From an uncultured Lachnospiraceae bacterium (GTDB lineage: Bacteria; Bacillota; Clostridia; Lachnospirales; Lachnospiraceae), in the NCBI GenBank assembly GCA_900542015.1, contig UQLY01000013.1:7961-71960 (forward strand): a stretch of DNA of 64,000 nucleotides. The letters run 5' to 3'. Position numbers and translations under genes: made by a program. The notes under the pieces were generated by a model. It saw only the letters and a list, made by a program, of their open reading frames with translations, made no database searches and was not told the origin of the DNA. Below, piece after piece: positions 4,640 through 50,833 of this stretch (positions within the stretch are counted from its first letter, which is position 1; every line of letters begins with the position of its first letter).

Positions 4640-4672
4640 GGGCTGCACATGAAAGGAATTTCATGTGCAGCC
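4640..4672. terminator. Bidirectional hairpin terminator between dnaB and the ferredoxin gene
   Basis: Perfect hairpin gggctgcacatgaaa-ggaa-tttcatgtgcagcc, flanked by an A-run on one side and a T-run on the other. It sits between convergent genes. Confidence 0.7.
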
Positions 4673-4687
4673 TTTATGGTTGATTGA

Positions 4688-4858
4688 TTATTCTGCAGCG
4701 ATTGCACCTGTAGGGCACTGTCCTGCACAAGTACCGCAATCGATACATTTTTCGGGATCGATTTCAAATTTACCGTCTCCCATGCTGATTGCTCCAACAG
4801 GGCAAGCAGCTTCACATGCGCCACATGCTACACAAGCGTCACCAATTTTGAATGCCAT
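4688..4858 (-). CDS. 2x[4Fe-4S] ferredoxin (56 aa); absent from the supplied ORF track because it is under 60 aa
   Basis: Reverse-strand translation MAFKIGDACVACGACEAACPVGAISMGDGKFEIDPEKCIDCGTCAGQCPTGAIAAE* carries two CxxCxxCxxxCP motifs. Confidence 0.85.
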   Translation of the reverse strand: MAFKIGDACVACGACEAACPVGAISMGDGKFEIDPEKCIDCGTCAGQCPTGAIAAE

Positions 4859-5014: not shown

Positions 5015-5785
5015 CTAATTGTGGTGCGTAATGCCCAGCTCCGCGCGGCGTTTCCGGATGCCGTTTAAGATATATTCCTTCTTTTCGGGGATCAGTTTCT
5101 TGTCCATCGGAGGAACATCCTTTAAGACATAATCGATGCCCAGTTCTTTGTATTTTTTCTTTGCCATATCGTGATACGGCAATACGTCGAGAGCCTTCAG
5201 ATTGGTAAACTGACCGATGAAATAGCCCAGCTTATATAAAGACTCCTCATCGTCGGTTATCCCCGGAACAACGACGTGCCTGATCCACATATCCACCTTC
5301 TTTTCGTTCAGATAAGCGGCAAAGGCAAGAATACCGTCGTTGGGCTGTTGCGTGAGCTTTTTATGCTTTTCGGGATCGATATGCTTGATATCGAGCATGA
5401 CGAGATCGGTAATCTCCATCAGCTTATCCAGTTTTTTGTTATATTCGGTATTATCCGGTTTATAAGCGATGCCGGAGGAGTCAATACAGGTATGGATACC
5501 GCGCTCTTTGCAAAGCGTGAACAATTCCAGCAGAAAATCAATCTGCATCAGAGGCTCGCCGCCTGTGACGGTAATACCGCCGCCGTTTGCATAAAATGCC
5601 TTATTGCGTTCATATTGTTCAATGATTTTGGATGCTTCCATAATTGTACCGCCTGTCATAGGCCAGGTGTCGGGATTATGGCAGTAAGCGCATCGCATTG
5701 GACAGCCCTGTACGAATACTACGAAACGTGTTCCGGGACCGTCCACCGTACCAAAACTTTCTAAAGAATGAATTCTTCCACTCAT
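5015..5785 (-). CDS. pflA: Pyruvate formate-lyase activating enzyme (radical SAM)
   Basis: 256-aa ORF with the CxxxCxxC radical-SAM motif (GCPMRCAYCHN) and the typical PflA N-terminus (IHSxESFGTVDGPGTRFVVF). A TATAAT (gtgttataatga) lies upstream. Confidence 0.95.
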   Translation of the reverse strand: MSGRIHSLESFGTVDGPGTRFVVFVQGCPMRCAYCHNPDTWPMTGGTIMEASKIIEQYERNKAFYANGGGITVTGGEPLMQIDFLLELFTLCKERGIHTCIDSSGIAYKPDNTEYNKKLDKLMEITDLVMLDIKHIDPEKHKKLTQQPNDGILAFAAYLNEKKVDMWIRHVVVPGITDDEESLYKLGYFIGQFTNLKALDVLPYHDMAKKKYKELGIDYVLKDVPPMDKKLIPEKKEYILNGIRKRRAELGITHHN

Positions 5786-5885
5786 ATACCGTCCTCTTTT
5801 CTTTTTTACTGAGTCAGCTGCCGTTTGCGATGAACCGGCGGCTTGCGTTCCCCTTACTAACGCTCATTATAACACAGGTAAAGGG

Positions 5886-5920
5886 AAAGAAAAAGCCTTC
5901 CGGCAAAACCGGAAGGCTTT
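5886..5920 (-). terminator. Rho-independent terminator downstream of the stand-alone glycyl-radical-domain ORF
   Basis: On the minus strand: AAAGCCUUCCGG-uuuug-CCGGAAGGCUUUUUCUUUCC. Confidence 0.7.
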
Positions 5921-5939
5921 GAAACATACCCAAATCGGA

Positions 5940-6182
5940 TTAGATGGATTCGTGGAATGTTCTGCTGATAACGTCTGCCTGCTGTTCAGGTGTTAATTTA
6001 ATGAAGTTTACAGCGTAACCGGACACACGGATTGTCAACTGAGGATATTTTTCAGGATTTTTCTGAGCATCCAGTAAAGTCTCTCTGTTTAATACGTTTA
6101 CGTTTAAGTGATGTCCGCCTTTTGTAGCATAACCGTCTAATAAGTTTACTAAGTTATTAACCTGAGCTGTATTTTCTGCCAT
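5940..6182 (-). CDS. Stand-alone glycyl-radical domain protein (GrcA/YfiD-like, equivalent to the PFL C-terminal ~75 aa)
   Basis: 80-aa ORF ...[59 protein letters not shown]. It contains the RVSGY glycine-radical motif and aligns with the PflB C-terminus. It has its own strong RBS (AGGAGGT, 8 nt from the ATG). Confidence 0.85.
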
Positions 6183-6252
6183 GATATATTACCTCCTATT
6201 AAAATATATGGGGGATGTACATGGGGCATCCCCCGTGTGAATCTTGTTTTGC

Positions 6253-6456
6253 TTATTCGTTGCCGTCTAAGCCTTCGTGAAGGGTAGGAACGCTGCATGC
6301 AAAAGGATTTTTGGAACACTCGGTGCATCCCATAGTCTCTACGCTTTTAGACCCTTCTGCCTTTTCATCAATGTCAACATTTACATGACCGATATTGTTA
6401 GCCATGCCATTATCAAGCTGTTTGATCAGGTCTTCAATCATTGCATTTTCGTCCAT
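6253..6456 (-). CDS. Degenerate glycyl-radical-domain paralogue (67 aa from the ATG; lacks RVSGY)
   Basis: MDENAMIEDLIKQLDNGMANNIGHVNVDI... aligns with the start of the stand-alone domain ([30 protein letters not shown]) and then diverges, losing the radical glycine. It is in the same frame as the pflB body, separated by a single TAA. RBS AGAAAGGTG before the ATG; the ORF track's TTG start is at 6474. Confidence 0.45.
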   Translation of the reverse strand: MDENAMIEDLIKQLDNGMANNIGHVNVDIDEKAEGSKSVETMGCTECSKNPFACSVPTLHEGLDGNE

Positions 6457-6483
6457 AGCTTTCACCTTTCTCAATGTTAAGAA

Positions 6484-8523
6484 TTATTTGTTTAAGTCGA
6501 TCTCGATGTCGCCTGCAAATACCTGATCCTCTTTACCAAGAGCTCCGGGGATGATGGTGAAGGTATTGGAGATACCGTCCTGAGCATCATTGAAAGGAAG
6601 CTTGGATACAGAAGATAAGGAAGCTACTGCACCATGAGTATCACGTCCGTGCATCGGGTTAGCACCGGGAGCGAAAGGCTGACCTTTTCTACGTCCGTCA
6701 GGTGTGTTACCTGTTGCTTTACCATAAGTTACGTTAGAAGTAATGGTAAGGATGGATGTTGTAGGAACACCGTTTCTGTAGGTATGATGTCTTCTGATCG
6801 CTGTCATGAACTTGTGTACGATATCCTGAGCGATTTCGTCTACGCGGTCATCATCATTACCGTATTTAGGGAAGTCTCCGGTTGTCTTGAAGTCAACGAT
6901 AATGCCGTCTTCGTCACGGATAACTTCAACTTTTGCATATTTGATAGCAGATAAGGAGTCAGCTACGATGGACAGACCTGCAACACCTGTTGCAAAGTAA
7001 CGTTTTACGTCTCTGTCATGTAAAGCCATCTGAGCTCTTTCATAGCAGTATTTATCGTGCATATAGTGGATGATGTTCAGAGTATTTACATATACGTCTG
7101 CCTGCCATTCCATCATATCCATGAATTTATCCATTACGTCGTCATAATCAAGTACGTCGCCGGTAACAGGACGGTATTTGGGACCAACCTGTTTCTTGGT
7201 AACTTCGTCGATACCGCCGTTCAAAGCGTACAGTAAGCATTTCGCTAAGTTAGCACGAGCTCCGAAGAACTGCATTTCTTTACCGATTACCATGGAGGAT
7301 ACGCAGCATGCGATACCGTAGTCATCGCCATGAGTTACTCTCATCAGGTCATCGTTTTCGTACTGGATGGAAGAAGTCTTAATGGACATCTTCGCACAGA
7401 ATTTCTTCCAGCCTTCCGGTAATCTTGTGGACCAGAGAACCGTTAAGTTGGGTTCAGGAGAAGGTCCTAAGTTGTTTAATGTATTTAAGTAACGGAAGGA
7501 CATCTTTGTTACTAACGGACGTCCGTCTACGCCGACACCGCCGAGGGACTCTGTAACCCATACAGGATCGCCTGCGAAGATCTGGTTGTATTCAGGTGTA
7601 CGAGCGAATTTAACGCAACGCAATTTCATGATGAAGTGGTCAACAAATTCCTGAATCTGTTCTTCTGTGAAAGTACCGTTCTTTAAGTCTCTCTCAGCAT
7701 AGCAGTCAAGGAATGTGGATGTACGTCCGAGGGACATAGCAGCACCGTTCTGCTCTTTTACCGCGCATAAATATCCGAAGTAAGTCCACTGGATAGCTTC
7801 CTGTACGTTGGAAGCGGGTTTGGAAATATCGCAGCCGTAAGAAGCAGCCATTTCCTTCATCATCTTCAGTGCTGTCATCTGTTCGGAAAGCTCTTCACGA
7901 AGACGGATAACGTCATCTGTCATAACGCGTCCTGTGGAAGCCTTCTGTGCTTCTTTGTCCTCGATCAGTCTGTCGATACCGTATAATGCAACACGTCTGT
8001 AGTCGCCGATGATACGTCCGCGTCCGTAAGCATCCGGAAGACCGGTAATGATATGAGAGGAACGACATGCTCTCATTTCAGGGTTGTAAGCATCGAAACA
8101 ACCAGCGTTGTGTGTTTTTCTGTGGGTGGAGAAGAACTCGGAGATTTCGGGATCTACTGTGTAGCCGTTATCTGTACAAGCTTTCTCTGCCATACGGATA
8201 CCGCCGTAAGGCTGCATGGAGCGTTTGAAAGGTTTGTCTGTCTGGAAGCCTACGATAGTCTCTTTGCTCTTATCGAGGTATCCGGGACCGTGGGAAGTGA
8301 TAGTGGAAACAACTTTGGTATCCATATCCAGTACCCCGCCTGCTTCACGTTCCTTTTTCTGTAAGTCAAGCACCATGTTCCATAAATCTTTGGTGTTCTG
8401 TGTAGGTCCTGCCAAGAAGCTCTCGTCTCCTTCGTAAGGAGTGTAGTTTCTCTGGATGAAGTCGCGAACATTGACTTCTTTGTCCCATTTGCCGCCTACA
8501 AAATCTGTCCATTCTGGTCTCAT
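6484..8523 (-). CDS. pflB: Pyruvate formate-lyase catalytic body (residues ~1-680 of PflB), lacking the glycyl-radical C-terminus
   Basis: 679-aa ORF with the PFL active-site CC (GIACCVSSM) and global similarity to E. coli PflB up to ...ALGKED, after which it reads [13 protein letters not shown] and stops. Confidence 0.9.
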
Positions 8524-8813
8524 TTTGAAATAGCCTCCTATAAAAATATAATTTTTTTGAACGGAATTTAACCGTTAAGTCACGCATAAAAACTATGCTC
8601 ATCCCATGCCTTAATTATAGGTTAAAAGAAGTGGCTGCGTCAAGACAAGGGTTGTACTTTTTTATATACAAACCGCTGTAAAATCAAAAGAAATTTATAA
8701 AAATTTACTAAACTTTTAAAAGACGGAGCGAACGTTTCAAAATGGAATATTGATAAAAACACAAGAAGGGGTTATACTATCAAAAAACAATACAAAATAA
8801 GGAGGTCACAGAC

Positions 8814-9005
8814 ATGACAGGAATCACGAAGGACATGACAATCGGAGAGATTATCAGAATAAATGCAGATGTTATTCCCGTGCTGATCAACGCAGGTATG
8901 CACTGTGTGGGATGCCCCTCCGCCCAGGGAGAAACTTTGGAAGAGGCGGCTATGGTACACGGGATGGACGTAGATGATTTGATGACTAAGATTCAGGCAT
9001 TATAA
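8814..9005 (+). CDS. DUF1858 / hybrid-cluster-protein-associated redox disulfide protein (small)
   Basis: 63-aa ORF with MTIGEIIR...[19 protein letters not shown], typical of this family. RBS AAGGAGG. Confidence 0.7.
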
Positions 9006-9099: not shown

Positions 9100-9867
9100 C
9101 TAGACCTCTGCGAGGGATTGCAAAGCGTGATCCAGGCAGATCGGTTCAAAATGTTCTGTCAGGTAAGCGTCCTTTCCGGGGGCGCTTTTTAAATAATATC
9201 CGTATTCGGAAAAAATATTGCATAATTTATTAAAATTTTCGGCGGATACATGCTCGCTGCTGATGATCAGCCGGTACTCGCGGGAAAAGCGGTCTTTATA
9301 AAGAGAGTTGCTTCCCAGGGGAATGTCGGAAACGACATGTGCAAGCCTGATAACATGATCCAAATTTGAAAAACGATATACTCTTGCAGGAGCGGGCTCC
9401 AATTCGGAAACGGACAATTTACCGGGAACAGGTTTATCGCGCCCTTTGTCCGGCAATTTTTCAATCCTGGAAACATCGCTTAATAAGCCGCTTTCCGCAT
9501 TCTGGACTTTCTGGAATAAGTTCATGACTTCATCGGTAATGTCTTCTATATCGGAATCGCCTGCGGCGTCTTCGTGAACGGAAGGCGCAAACTTGGAAAA
9601 ACGGGTATCCAGCTCTTCGGGGTCCTCCACTTTGGTAATCGTCAAAACAATACACTCCGCGCTGATAGGCACGGCTTCAATCATTAACGGGATGTCGTCC
9701 GCTTCAAAGCCGCATTCCCAGGACGCCTGTTCCATCATATCCTTAAAAAGCAACTTAGCCTTTTCGCTGCCATAGGCAAGTTCGCTTATCTTGAGCTCTC
9801 TGTCTGCCAGATCGTTTTTGGTTAAAGTGCAACGTATTTGATTTTCGTTGATTCTTTCGATTTTCAT
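9100..9867 (-). CDS. mecA: Adapter protein MecA (ClpC adaptor)
   Basis: 255-aa ORF MKIERINENQIRCTLTKNDLADRELKISELAYGSEKAKLLFKDMMEQA... with MecA family N-terminal and C-terminal domains. Confidence 0.8.
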   Translation of the reverse strand: MKIERINENQIRCTLTKNDLADRELKISELAYGSEKAKLLFKDMMEQASWECGFEADDIPLMIEAVPISAECIVLTITKVEDPEELDTRFSKFAPSVHEDAAGDSDIEDITDEVMNLFQKVQNAESGLLSDVSRIEKLPDKGRDKPVPGKLSVSELEPAPARVYRFSNLDHVIRLAHVVSDIPLGSNSLYKDRFSREYRLIISSEHVSAENFNKLCNIFSEYGYYLKSAPGKDAYLTEHFEPICLDHALQSLAEV

Positions 9868-47999: not shown

Positions 48000-48215
48000 A
48001 TGGACGAGGATAAAATGATCGATGAAATCCTAAAGCATTTGGATACCGAGACCGGACAGGGCGTTGTCAGAATGAGCGTGCAGATCGACGAAGAAACGGA
48101 GACGTTTAAGCAGATCGATCACGGCTGCTGTCATATGTATGGTAGACCGGCAAACGAAACCGTGGGTCTTTTGGATATGTACACGGATATTAGCCATGGG
48201 GAAGCCGACCGTTAG
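48000..48215 (+). CDS. Small hypothetical acidic protein (71 aa)
   Basis: Good RBS ACGGAGGAAAG; contains a CC-H motif. Confidence 0.35.
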   Translation: MDEDKMIDEILKHLDTETGQGVVRMSVQIDEETETFKQIDHGCCHMYGRPANETVGLLDMYTDISHGEADR

Positions 48216-48241: not shown

Positions 48242-50833
48242 ATGTATGCGATGATCAATATTATCCAGATTGTCGGGGTAATCGTAGGATTTCTGACGAT
48301 TATCGTTGTAGCGCGGCAAAAGGCATCGGAAAACCAGAAGGTTTTGCTGCTTGCCTGTTGCTGCGCTTTTTTAAGTATTCTTGCCTACACGATGGAAATT
48401 AACAGCACGTCGTTAGAAGCAATGCTTGTGGCGCTGAAATTCGGCTATCTGGGAAAATGTTATGTGTTGTTATTCTTTTTTATGTTTATGGCGGCATATT
48501 GCAGGATTTCGTTCCCAAAAAGTATTTTCCGCTTTTTTCTGATCTTTAATACGGCGATGCTTGTCGTGATCGTTACCTGTGAGCGGCACAGCCTTTACTA
48601 TCGGAATCTGCATATGGATACCGGCGGAATGTTTCCGCACCCTGCTTTTGAAAGAGGAGTCTGCTATTGGATGTTTATGGCGGTCATGCTGCTGTTGATG
48701 ATCTGGTATCTGGTTATTTCCGTGATTGAAGTCCATAAAAGGAACGGAAGGGAAAGAAAACAGATCCTTTTGCTTTCCATGGCGGGAATTATTCCCTCCT
48801 TTATGCTGGTGGTATATCTGACGGGCATTCTGGACGTATTTGATCCGGTTCCCATCGGAATCGTGGCGTCCTGCAGCCTGCTGACCATAAATGTATTAAA
48901 ATACGGGCTTTTTGATACGCTGCAGTTGGCAAAGGAAAAGGTCATCGAGAGCACCAAGGAAGGGCTGATCGTTGTGGACCCCGATTACCGCCTTTTGTAT
49001 GCCAACGAGGTTGCCGGACAGCTTTTCCCGGATATTAACGATCAGAAAAAGCGGGAAGAACGTCTGGAGGAAATATTCGGGAAAGACCAGCGGGAAACCA
49101 TTGTGATGCAGGACGGCAGAAATTATGAAATCCGTGTTTCCAAAATCACGGAGGACGCTTATCAGGAGACGGTTAAAGGATATCTTGCATGGATTTTTGA
49201 TATGACGTTTATCAATCGTTATACGGAGGAAATGATCTGTTTAAGGGAGGAAGCGGAAAAGGCGAATCTGGCGAAAACTTCCTTTCTGGCGCACATATCC
49301 CATGAGATCAGGACCCCGATGAACGCCATTGTGGGTTACTCGGACCTGTGCATCAGAAGTGATTCTTATCATGAAATCGAGCAATATGTGGGACATATCA
49401 AGACCTCGGCGGAGACGCTGTTAAACCTGATTAACGACGTACTGGACATTTCCAAAATAGAATGCGGAAAAATGGAACTGGTGGAAATGGAATATTCGTT
49501 AAAGGCGATGATGAGCGAGACGATATCGGTCATCGGGCAGCAGGCGCATGAAAAAGGTCTGATGTTTCGCTATATGCTGGAGGAACGCCTGCCGTCTTCA
49601 CTGTACGGCGATAAAACCCGCGTCAGGGAAATCGCGTCGAACCTATTATCCAATGCCGTCAAATACACCGACGAGGGAACGATTTACTTTAAGATTAAAG
49701 AAATTGAGCGGCTCGGCAACAAGGTCCTCATGGAAATTATTGTAAGGGATACAGGAATCGGGATTCGGGATGAGGATAAGGAAAAATTATTTCAAAAATT
49801 CGAGCGGTTTGACAGCGTGAGGAATTATTCCAAGGAAGGTACGGGGCTGGGACTTCCGATTGTAAAGAGCCTTGCCGAGCTGATGGAAGGTTCTGTGGAG
49901 GTGGAAAGCGTTTACGGCAAGGGCAGTACTTTCCGGGTCCGGATATGGCAGAAAATCGCGGATGCAACGCCCGTGGGAGAGTATCGCGGGACGAATGAGG
50001 ACAAGATCATTCCGGAGAGAGAAGCATATGGGAGCGGGCAGAGGGTTCAATTTCCGAAGGCGTCGGTGCTTGTGGTGGATGATAATGAAGTAAACCTGCG
50101 GGTTGCTTACAGCTTATTAAAGCTCTACGGCATTGAGGCGGATCTGCTGGAATCGGGAAAGGCGTGTTTGGAAAAAGCGGCGGACAGGCATTATGATCTC
50201 GTATTTATGGATCTGATGATGCCGGAGACGGACGGCGTGGAGACCATGCACCGGTTACGGCAGGAGCGGGAAGGCTGTCAGGATACGCCGATCGTTGCCC
50301 TGACCGCAAATACGCTGGTAGGGGTGAAGGAAGAAATGCTTTCCGAGGGCTTTGACGACTTTTTGGGAAAGCCCATTGAACTGACGGAGCTTCAAAAAAT
50401 GCTGGAGCACTTTTTGAAGGATTATTGCGAACGGTTGCCAGAGGACGCGGGCAGGAAGGCAGAGAAAGTGGAAAGCGGTTATGAGATTCTCATACAAGGG
50501 GGCATTGAGGCGGAGGTTGGAGAAGCGTACTGCGGCGATGCAGCCGGATATCGGGAAATTTTACAGACCTTTGCAGATCACGGACCCGGACAACAGCAAT
50601 TACTTCGGGAGGCGTTGGACGGACAGGAACCGGAGCAATATGAGATACAGGTGCATGCCTTGAAAAGCTCTGCCGCCGTTATCGGGGCAAAACAGTTGTC
50701 CCAGCTTGCAAAAGCGCATGAAAAGGCGGTTAAGGAAGAGAACTTTGCCTTTGTCCGGGAGCATTTTCCCATTCTGCAAAGCGCCTATGAACAGGTGCTG
50801 GAAACGATCCGGCGCTATTTGCAGACGCTGTAA
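48242..50833 (+). CDS. Hybrid sensor histidine kinase (7TM sensor - PAS - HisKA - HATPase_c - REC - HPt)
   Basis: Six or seven N-terminal TM helices; H-box FLAHISHEIRTPMNAIVGYSDL; N/G boxes; receiver VLVVDDNEVNLR...DLVFMDLMMPETDG; C-terminal HPt (VHALKSSAAVIGAKQLSQLAKAHE). Confidence 0.9.
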   Translation: MYAMINIIQIVGVIVGFLTIIVVARQKASENQKVLLLACCCAFLSILAYTMEINSTSLEAMLVALKFGYLGKCYVLLFFFMFMAAYCRISFPKSIFRFFLIFNTAMLVVIVTCERHSLYYRNLHMDTGGMFPHPAFERGVCYWMFMAVMLLLMIWYLVISVIEVHKRNGRERKQILLLSMAGIIPSFMLVVYLTGILDVFDPVPIGIVASCSLLTINVLKYGLFDTLQLAKEKVIESTKEGLIVVDPDYRLLYANEVAGQLFPDINDQKKREERLEEIFGKDQRETIVMQDGRNYEIRVSKITEDAYQETVKGYLAWIFDMTFINRYTEEMICLREEAEKANLAKTSFLAHISHEIRTPMNAIVGYSDLCIRSDSYHEIEQYVGHIKTSAETLLNLINDVLDISKIECGKMELVEMEYSLKAMMSETISVIGQQAHEKGLMFRYMLEERLPSSLYGDKTRVREIASNLLSNAVKYTDEGTIYFKIKEIERLGNKVLMEIIVRDTGIGIRDEDKEKLFQKFERFDSVRNYSKEGTGLGLPIVKSLAELMEGSVEVESVYGKGSTFRVRIWQKIADATPVGEYRGTNEDKIIPEREAYGSGQRVQFPKASVLVVDDNEVNLRVAYSLLKLYGIEADLLESGKACLEKAADRHYDLVFMDLMMPETDGVETMHRLRQEREGCQDTPIVALTANTLVGVKEEMLSEGFDDFLGKPIELTELQKMLEHFLKDYCERLPEDAGRKAEKVESGYEILIQGGIEAEVGEAYCGDAAGYREILQTFADHGPGQQQLLREALDGQEPEQYEIQVHALKSSAAVIGAKQLSQLAKAHEKAVKEENFAFVREHFPILQSAYEQVLETIRRYLQTL

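Follow-up and report, generated by a model that had tools for sequence, protein, structure and literature searches.

A probable pyruvate formate-lyase encoded in separate pieces, with a 67-residue cysteine-bearing partner protein, in an uncultured Lachnospiraceae bacterium

The DNA analysed here, referred to below as the window, is a stretch of 64,000 nucleotides (nt) from an uncultured Lachnospiraceae bacterium (GenBank assembly GCA_900542015.1, contig UQLY01000013.1, positions 7,961 to 71,960 of the forward strand). It carries a pyruvate formate-lyase (PFL) locus in which the catalytic body is a polypeptide without the C-terminal glycyl-radical domain. The RVSGY motif of that domain is found on a separate open reading frame (ORF) of 80 amino acids (aa), GrcA3, and a gene between the two, here called mid, encodes a protein of 67 aa. 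We interpret the locus as a naturally split PFL with a latch module at its empty domain socket, an interpretation to which we give slightly better than even chances. Among glycyl radical enzymes PFL is the most widespread, and it carries out a central fermentation step of gut anaerobes; its weak point is the radical glycine, where oxygen cleaves the polypeptide. The pieces of the split enzyme are listed below in window coordinates, with the evidence in brackets; dN/dS is the ratio of nonsynonymous to synonymous substitution rates.

6484..8523, minus strand: PFL catalytic body, 679 aa, with its TAA stop at 6486..6484 (PF02901, TIGR01255)
6487..6531, minus strand: acidic tail of the body, after ALGK (conservation in 76 loci, dN/dS 0.07)
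6253..6456, minus strand: mid, the 67-aa partner protein, with its ATG at 6456 and AAAGGTGA ahead of the start (homologue family, dN/dS)
6352..6456, minus strand: N-terminal module of mid, residues 1-35 (hhalign to GrcA3)
6256..6342, minus strand: C-terminal Cys motif of mid, VETMGCTECSKNPFACSVPTLHEGLD (invariant columns, dN/dS 0.065)
5940..6182, minus strand: GrcA3, 80 aa, with RVSGY and a strong AGGAGGT ribosome-binding site (PF01228, NF038360, TIGR01255)

Together the body and GrcA3 cover PFL from end to end. The body matches PF02901 (E 4.8e-222) and scores 1101.7 bits on TIGR01255, where the curated cutoff of 994.2 is exceeded with the barrel domain. It spans positions 2-665 of the 744 of that model, and GrcA3 spans positions 663-744. 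When aligned to Escherichia coli PFL, the body corresponds to residues 10-681, in agreement with a preliminary description of the sequence, which had let it align with PflB to about residue 680, and residues 7-79 of GrcA3 correspond to residues 681-758. By both the profile and the E. coli protein the two pieces therefore abut, with neither gap nor overlap. The adjacent catalytic cysteines (the Cys418-Cys419 loop) are present in the alignment to E. coli as GIACCVSSM at body residues 403-411.

At the junction, unsplit PFLs have the pattern ALGK-D/E-x(4-6)-NLVxxLDGY, which runs directly into the radical domain, and none of them has a counterpart of the body tail that follows ALGK here. The tail is kept in 76 close loci (dN/dS 0.07), distant lineages retain the pattern G-D/E-I/L-D/E-x-D/E-L with its alternation of acidic and hydrophobic residues, and in other lineages the tail extends into a Cys motif. 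To the first reading the tail had looked like a third, more decayed copy of the junction; hhalign comparisons with mid or GrcA3 (P 0.13, 0.22 and 0.76) lend this no statistical support. A search for the nearest unsplit PFLs, made with an artificial query spanning the junction, yielded nothing but C-terminal fragments of such enzymes, with identities of 64-81%, mostly 70% or higher. One of these fragments, P0366, carries some 35 extra residues precisely where the split lies (ALGKSDDTFTKLSDAANKVVDEKDCINEEVDKVYVAPDASESQIENLISLIDGY), which indicates that the junction tolerates insertions.

The split arrangement is conserved across genomes. A scan of one genome per GTDB species showed that at least 594 species genomes encode a relative of mid; the carriers are nearly all metagenome-assembled genomes (MAGs) of Lachnospiraceae, with Kineothrix and Acetatifactor among the named ones. 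Eighty loci were fetched with mid as seed. The gene order body, mid, GrcA3 is found in 76 of them, or in 78 with the two that contig ends truncate, and the other two hold an orphan mid; in all 76 complete loci the body stops at the same place. An identical 679-aa body is present in 99 blocks of independent assemblies, followed in each by genes of 67, 80 and 256 aa, and body identity among related loci is 87-98%. The preliminary description had offered as its first option a naturally two-piece PFL whose C-terminus is supplied in trans by a GrcA-like protein, and had proposed a search of related genomes for the same architecture. Such a search found it in 76 of 80 loci, and the end-to-end coverage together with an architecture conserved in hundreds of species supports that option. 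A base-call error at the TAA, raised as a further concern, does not agree with the 99 assembly blocks, and a stop confined to this strain amid ordinary single-ORF relatives is contradicted by the relatives themselves, which share the stop.

The locus could in principle be a decaying pflB pseudogene or contain a sequencing error at the TAA, or readthrough, frameshifting, an intron or an intein could reunite its pieces. The one feature pointing that way is that in the window the middle ORF is in frame with the body and opens 27 nt past its stop. The in-frame relation noted in the preliminary description is thus true of the window, but it is incidental, since the gaps between the genes differ in length and frame among loci: the body-mid gap is 14-163 nt and the mid-GrcA3 gap 2-690 nt, with all three frames represented for both. 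Each piece is also under purifying selection in its own frame, including the protein encoded in the spacer. Pairwise dN/dS is 0.05 over the final 100 body codons, 0.067 for GrcA3, 0.05 for pflA (the gene of the radical-SAM activase) and 0.10 for mid; within mid the two halves have values of 0.12 and 0.065 and the eight-residue linker about 0.6, which is nearly neutral. Synonymous sites are near saturation, so that these ratios are rough, yet those of the genes are clearly far below 1. In almost every locus each of the three genes has a Shine-Dalgarno motif ahead of it, and GrcA3 has its own AGGAGG in 77 of 78. An Rfam scan of positions 5700-8800 gave only sub-threshold chance matches, none better than E 1.2, and with no Rfam intron or other RNA family in the spacer we place no intron or riboswitch there. 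With the stop common to the 76 complete loci and the 99 assembly blocks, we regard decay, sequencing error and recoding as extremely improbable. The suggestions that the enzyme is being inactivated and that the middle ORF is degenerate fall with the same data: at dN/dS 0.10 and with a conserved family, mid is a third component and no remnant.

GrcA3 contains the helix that precedes strand beta10, strand beta10 itself, the Gly loop with RVSGY and the C-terminal segment. The ORF matches PF01228 (E 1.6e-23) and scores 156.4 bits on NF038360 (cutoff 158), a match that spans positions 2-78 of 78. Homologues 93% identical to it carry the NCBI name GrcA3, and all five GrcA3 proteins tested from other split loci score 162-170 against the same cutoff; these come from three loci fetched with GrcA3 as seed, from the distant locus L084 and from the query locus L086, and represent five other lineages. 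On the GrcA model TIGR04365 the score is 103.7 bits against a cutoff of 170, with only positions 65-126 of 126 covered, and residues 20-80 align to residues 67-127 of YfiD.

In its barrel, Cys-Cys loop, RVSGY loop and adjacent activase the system resembles PflB of E. coli (PDB 1H16, 2PFL) with PflA. PflB is a single chain, however, whereas the PFL of the window is broken at 681, has an extra acidic tail and has a third small protein encoded at the break. GrcA3 in turn resembles YfiD/GrcA (PDB 6OWR; TIGR04365), a small stand-alone glycyl-radical domain that can be activated by PflA and supplies the radical to a PFL without a working domain. YfiD repairs full-length PFL that oxygen has cleaved, and it has a disordered N-terminus of 60 residues and starts at beta10; this N-terminus is missing from GrcA3, which does include the helix before beta10 and stands beside a body that never had the domain. 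With these differences GrcA3 looks like an obligate subunit.

It is very unlikely, in our judgement, that GrcA3 is a classical YfiD-like spare part for a full-length PFL elsewhere in the genome and that the adjacent body is inactive or has another function. The name of NF038360, 'autonomous glycyl radical cofactor GrcA3', given by analogy with GrcA, does imply a spare part for the 80-aa ORF that it matches over the full length, and, as our comparison covered the window and fetched loci, a second pflB may exist elsewhere in these genomes. Yet the body is among the most conserved genes of the locus (dN/dS about 0.05, with the high identity given above), retains the Cys-Cys loop and, even in the absence of its domain, scores above the PFL equivalog cutoff. 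It always lies directly upstream of GrcA3 in one operon. The helix of GrcA3 before beta10 (PFL 681-695) is absent from YfiD, the 60-residue N-terminus of YfiD is absent from GrcA3, and no other PFL-like gene was found elsewhere in the 64-kb window.

The gene between body and GrcA3 encodes a protein family of its own. Counted from the TTG at 6474, the middle ORF has 73 aa, but homologues all begin at the position of the ATG at 6456, so this ATG is taken as the true start of mid and gives 67 aa. Homologues form 98 clusters, almost all of exactly 67 aa, and a Shine-Dalgarno-like motif precedes the gene in 72 of 81 loci. A profile search of 1.84 billion cluster representatives extended the family to 205 clusters at 50% identity (E at most 0.001); nearly all of the 150 members listed have 60-90 aa and none lies within a large enzyme. 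Five distant relatives (about 25-40% identity) each stand directly upstream of a Gly_radical ORF of 78-80 aa, and a truncated PFL of 683-688 aa lies upstream of them wherever the contig reaches. Among Pfam and NCBIfam models, 112 members of the family gave no family of their own, only weak matches to GrcA3 or Gly_radical, and a PDB search with the mid profile returned spurious matches only.

The N-terminal half of mid is related to the start of the glycyl-radical domain, as had been noticed from the sequence. With a profile of the wide family, hhalign aligns residues 2-35 of mid to residues 3-36 of GrcA3 with a probability of 95.8%, P 7.9e-9 and a score of 42.6, compared with 9.1 for the reversed profile and 13.5 for the best of 30 column shuffles. 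The NCBIfam GrcA3 model is weakly matched by 53 of the 112 members (best E 1.5e-6). Mid has no RVSGY motif. The N-terminal segment corresponds to E. coli PFL 681-707, that is, to the helix before beta10 and beta10. The positions kept across the family (I7, D8-D9, L14, D15, G21, G23, H24, N26 and V27) coincide with the LD...GG-H-x-N-V positions conserved in PFL domains. From these alignments, residues 1-35 of mid appear to be a diverged copy of the docking helix and beta10 strand of the radical domain. AlphaFold2 predictions of mid alone gave a pLDDT (predicted local distance difference test score) of 68 with 112 diverse sequences, in which only helix 3-19 was confident (82-84), and of 55 with 35 close sequences; the quality of these models is insufficient for a fold search.

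The C-terminal part of mid has 19 invariant columns among 35 close relatives, with the pattern V-x-TMGC-xx-C-xxx-P-x-ACSVPTLH-x-GLD. Across the whole family C47, A53-C54, P57-T58-L59, G62 and D64 are conserved. C44 and H60, which are invariant in the clade of the window, occur in about one third of the wider family, and of the candidate metal ligands only C47 and C54 exceed 80% across it. Profile comparisons of this half with the radical domain, the body and PflA gave no significant similarity; two candidates considered here, the likeness of FACSVPT in mid to the catalytic IACCVSS (P 0.39) and that of mid to PflA (P 0.043), were rejected as not significant.

Two further groups of sequences share parts of mid. 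A 71-aa ORF (MDEDKMIDEILKHLDTETGQGVVRMSVQIDEE...) in the window at 48000..48215, plus strand, has the N-terminal helix and strand module of mid (30.1 bits on the mid family hidden Markov model (HMM), 33% identity by tblastn), and its C-terminal half, which includes a CC pair, is unlike that of mid. A hybrid histidine kinase with seven transmembrane segments (7TM; 48242..50833) is encoded just downstream, and exactly this 71-aa protein is called in 156 assembly blocks. Three other proteins, P0241, P0258 and P0360, have 111-140 aa and unrelated N-termini and end in GCTDCSRTPLACSVPTLHxGLD; they could be real fusions or artefacts of gene calling.

A second sample, independent of mid, placed the 67-aa protein in a wider setting. 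Eighty metagenomic loci were fetched with the GrcA3 of a distant lineage, and each of the 80 matches stands alone as an ORF of about 80 aa. A domain-less body is visible upstream in 75 of these loci. Thirteen of the 75 have a separate mid gene and a short body tail free of Cys, 59 have no mid gene and at least two Cys in the body tail, three have neither and none has both (Fisher 4e-12). Many of the Cys tails are clearly the C-terminal motif of mid fused to the tail strand, as in ALGKEDRVFAGDIDVDLDCGGACFSPTLFEGIDEE and ALGKDDQIFAGDIAIDIDCCASGACSSPTLFEGLDTDAE; other tails have shorter variants such as ...ELEPDCACCEPNL... and ...DDCVTCG, and the Cys spacing varies between CC, CxC, CxxC and C-x6-C. 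Nine tail types reach 18-30 bits with an HMM of the mid C-terminal motif, whereas none of 840 shuffles that preserve composition exceeds 8.0. The mutual exclusion of the two forms and the homology of the tails indicate that the 67-aa protein is the trans-encoded form of a Cys module that is near-universal at the C-terminus of domain-less PFL bodies. Mid could have a simple origin, if a duplicate of part of grcA3, from its 5' end, had been inserted between tail strand and Cys motif. The three loci with a split PFL and with neither a Cys tail nor a separate mid gene are L121, L162 and L165, and they show that the Cys module is not strictly obligatory; the body of L162 ends at SLGKN, like the PDB chain 38LA discussed below.

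A June 2026 review describes small subunits for only three glycyl radical enzymes, HPAD, BSS and MASS; all of these subunits contain iron cofactors, located close to the radical domain and of unclear function, and HPAD gamma uses a Cys3His site (PMC13450708). Like mid, they are small Cys-rich proteins encoded beside the catalytic subunit. The Cys module, whether as mid or as a fused tail, might accordingly be a permanent metal-binding small subunit comparable to BSS beta/gamma, HPAD gamma and MASS delta, bound together with GrcA3 and clamping the domain through a Zn or Fe-S site, with no alternation between the two. The near-universal presence of the module among split PFLs would suit such a role, as would the occurrence of at least two Cys, as CxxC, CxC or CC, in every Cys-bearing tail and the invariance of C44, C47, C54 and H60 in the 35 close relatives. 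The known small subunits, however, are HiPIP-like or rubredoxin-like with four metal ligands, whereas mid has two family-wide Cys, which would not suffice for a mononuclear site unless a partner contributed, and an N-terminal half derived from the radical domain. No sequence similarity to any small-subunit family was found, and AlphaFold2 predicted one helix and no HiPIP-like or rubredoxin-like fold. Because the N-terminal half copies the docking elements of GrcA3, it points to the same site and not to a second one. On balance we consider a permanent small subunit unlikely, though it deserves to be kept in view.

Oxygen destroys PFL at the radical glycine, and small thiols are known to quench the radical. 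The Cys module might on this ground be a redox or radical safety device, either a disulfide oxygen sensor or a quencher that donates a hydrogen atom to the glycyl radical (a built-in deactivase), and would so shield GrcA3 against cleavage by oxygen. Two conserved cysteines 6-7 residues apart, in a module placed where the Gly loop would arrive, fit this idea, but the number and spacing of Cys vary widely among the tails and are a poor fit to one precise chemistry, and unsplit PFLs do without such a module. A safety device therefore seems to us improbable.

In the mechanism that we prefer, that of a split PFL with a latch at its empty socket, PflA, probably reduced by the adjacent ferredoxin, would place the radical on Gly55 of GrcA3, and GrcA3 would insert into the body to give the active enzyme. 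This would mirror the engineered pair of tPFL(1-695) and truncYfiD(61-127). The strand and Cys module would be the latch at the empty domain socket, supplied in trans here and in cis elsewhere; its tether would be the helix and beta10 copy when it acts in trans and the body tail when it acts in cis. While GrcA3 is unbound, the latch may cover or stabilise the nine-stranded barrel and the active-site cysteines. Once displaced, it could serve as a recognition element that aids docking of GrcA3 and activation by PflA, much as residues 696-733 do for YfiD. Oxygen damage would then cost only the 9-kDa cartridge and spare the 75-kDa body, since the radical domain would be exchangeable. The two family-wide cysteines probably serve either as metal ligands or as a redox switch.

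Several observations weigh against the latch. Its role rests on homology, on the cis/trans pattern of fusion and on analogy with E. coli. A mid copy in the slot of GrcA3 must compete with GrcA3, and the retention of a competitor is unexplained; the body also keeps its conserved strand-like tail even beside mid, for which the model gives no reason. AlphaFold2 leaves the strand and the Cys motif of mid unstructured (pLDDT 52-75), although this is also weakly consistent with elements whose folding would require a partner. A fixed Cys3His metal site in mid was considered and downgraded, as C44 and H60 proved clade-specific in the wide alignment. The two samples are each seeded from one lineage and are not phylogenetically independent, neither the 80 loci fetched with mid nor the 75 with a visible body, which nevertheless contain more than 50 distinct tail sequences. 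Finally, the two orphan mid copies, 73% identical (L026 4778..4978 and L042 6001..6201), lie upstream of deoC, adjacent to it in L042 and with one ORF between in L026, and in the 2-6 kb fetched on each side of them there is no PFL body, GrcA3 or pflA.

The engineered E. coli pair is two-piece like the PFL of the window, whose natural break lies 14 residues upstream of the tPFL(1-695) truncation. Once activated, tPFL(1-695) with truncYfiD(61-127) has a kcat of 204/s, compared with 105/s for PFL (Andorfer et al. 2021, PMC8683613). The engineered partners nevertheless bind too weakly for isothermal titration calorimetry and are activated 6- to 32-fold less well, and in oxygen-cleaved PFL residues 696-733, that is, beta10 and half of the Gly loop, are a recognition element needed for YfiD (PMC8683613). 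The natural system differs in adding the tail and the Cys module, and these may supply what the engineered pair is missing.

Parts of the arrangement have been noticed before. A literature search found no paper that uses the name GrcA3 and none on the split architecture, and neither the truncated body nor the 67-aa partner is described in any of the families and papers searched. In the PDB, two chains named 'Formate acetyltransferase', 38LA_A and 38LB_A, with 687 and 739 residues, match the body with scores of 1112 and 1146 bits. Both belong to organisms other than that of the window and end at or just past its junction (...SLGKED, and ...ALGKSGNVMFGECDMCEMKELDDVSKID...), and 38LB has a CxxC tail (ECDMCE) of the type seen in the metagenomic loci. 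No chain resembling a glycyl-radical domain or mid was matched in these entries, and no associated paper was found. Such domain-less bodies make the split itself less novel, but the 67-aa protein and the cis/trans module no less so. The June 2026 review names YfiD/GrcA as a spare-part protein (PMC13450708) and is silent on small subunits of PFL; the arrangement thus appears to be absent from the literature, the GrcA3 model and 38LA/38LB being the parts that have been noticed.

A natural split PFL bears on how the radical domain leaves and re-enters the barrel for activation, on how a spare part recognises its target and on how anaerobes limit the cost of oxygen damage. The locus offers a ready two- or three-piece system for electron paramagnetic resonance, binding and structural work, and it provides a context linked to function both for a family of small 'hypothetical' proteins that numbers at least 205 clusters and for the Cys-rich tails of many annotated 'formate acetyltransferases'. 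A broader proposal, which we advance only tentatively and think less likely to hold than to fail, is that domain-less PFLs form a large undescribed 'cartridge' class in which the Cys latch controls the loading and unloading of GrcA3, possibly through a metal or redox state. If it were true, domains damaged by oxygen could be swapped without remaking the 75-kDa body, and the 67-aa protein would be the first known mimic of the docking half of a glycyl-radical domain.

The ORFs, the hairpin, the ribosome-binding site, the terminators and pflA were all found on the minus strand where the first reading of the sequence had placed them. Apart from the pieces of the enzyme given above, the locus comprises the following features.

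8614..8643, minus strand: promoter-like site 5' of the PFL body, TTGACG, 18 nt, TATAAT (11 of 12 matches in a consensus scan; prediction only)
6205..6239, minus strand: GC-rich hairpin in the spacer between mid and GrcA3, followed by AGGAGGT (RNAfold)
5892..5920, minus strand: terminator-like hairpin 3' of GrcA3 (13-bp stem with 7 GC pairs, T-rich tail)
5015..5785, minus strand: PflA, radical-SAM activase (TIGR02493, 305.1 bits against a cutoff of 231.75)
4688..4858, minus strand: 2x[4Fe-4S] ferredoxin, 56 aa (two CxxCxxCxxxCP motifs)
4641..4672, minus strand: terminator-like hairpin 3' of the ferredoxin gene (14-bp stem and T-run)

The start of pflA is 154 nt downstream of GrcA3 in the window, and 68 of 81 related loci likewise have pflA downstream and on the same strand. 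A ferredoxin gene follows pflA within 600 nt in 48 of 67 related loci and is also present in the distant locus L084; its product is a plausible candidate for the electron donor to PflA. The 70-nt spacer between mid and GrcA3 folds at -16.1 kcal/mol (RNAfold), with the hairpin arms GGGGGATG...CATCCCCC. A similar hairpin, varying in sequence, occurs only in the closest relatives L001, L003, L004 and L006. As it is specific to this lineage, and as the spacers between mid and GrcA3 measure 2-30 nt in many loci, it is not a core part of the system; it could be an element of mRNA processing or stability.

Two contigs of MAG RGIG9247 (L065 and L066) carry the locus with identical coordinates and identities, which reflects either a duplication or assembly redundancy. 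The pfl operon of the window is flanked by the gene of a small DUF1858 protein (8814..9005, plus strand) and that of a MecA adaptor homologue (9100..9867, minus strand). These neighbours recur in 43-45 of 81 close loci, and in the sample fetched with GrcA3, which has flanks of 3 kb, MecA is absent and DUF1858 is present in 8 loci only. Their restriction to close relatives indicates clade synteny and not a functional link.

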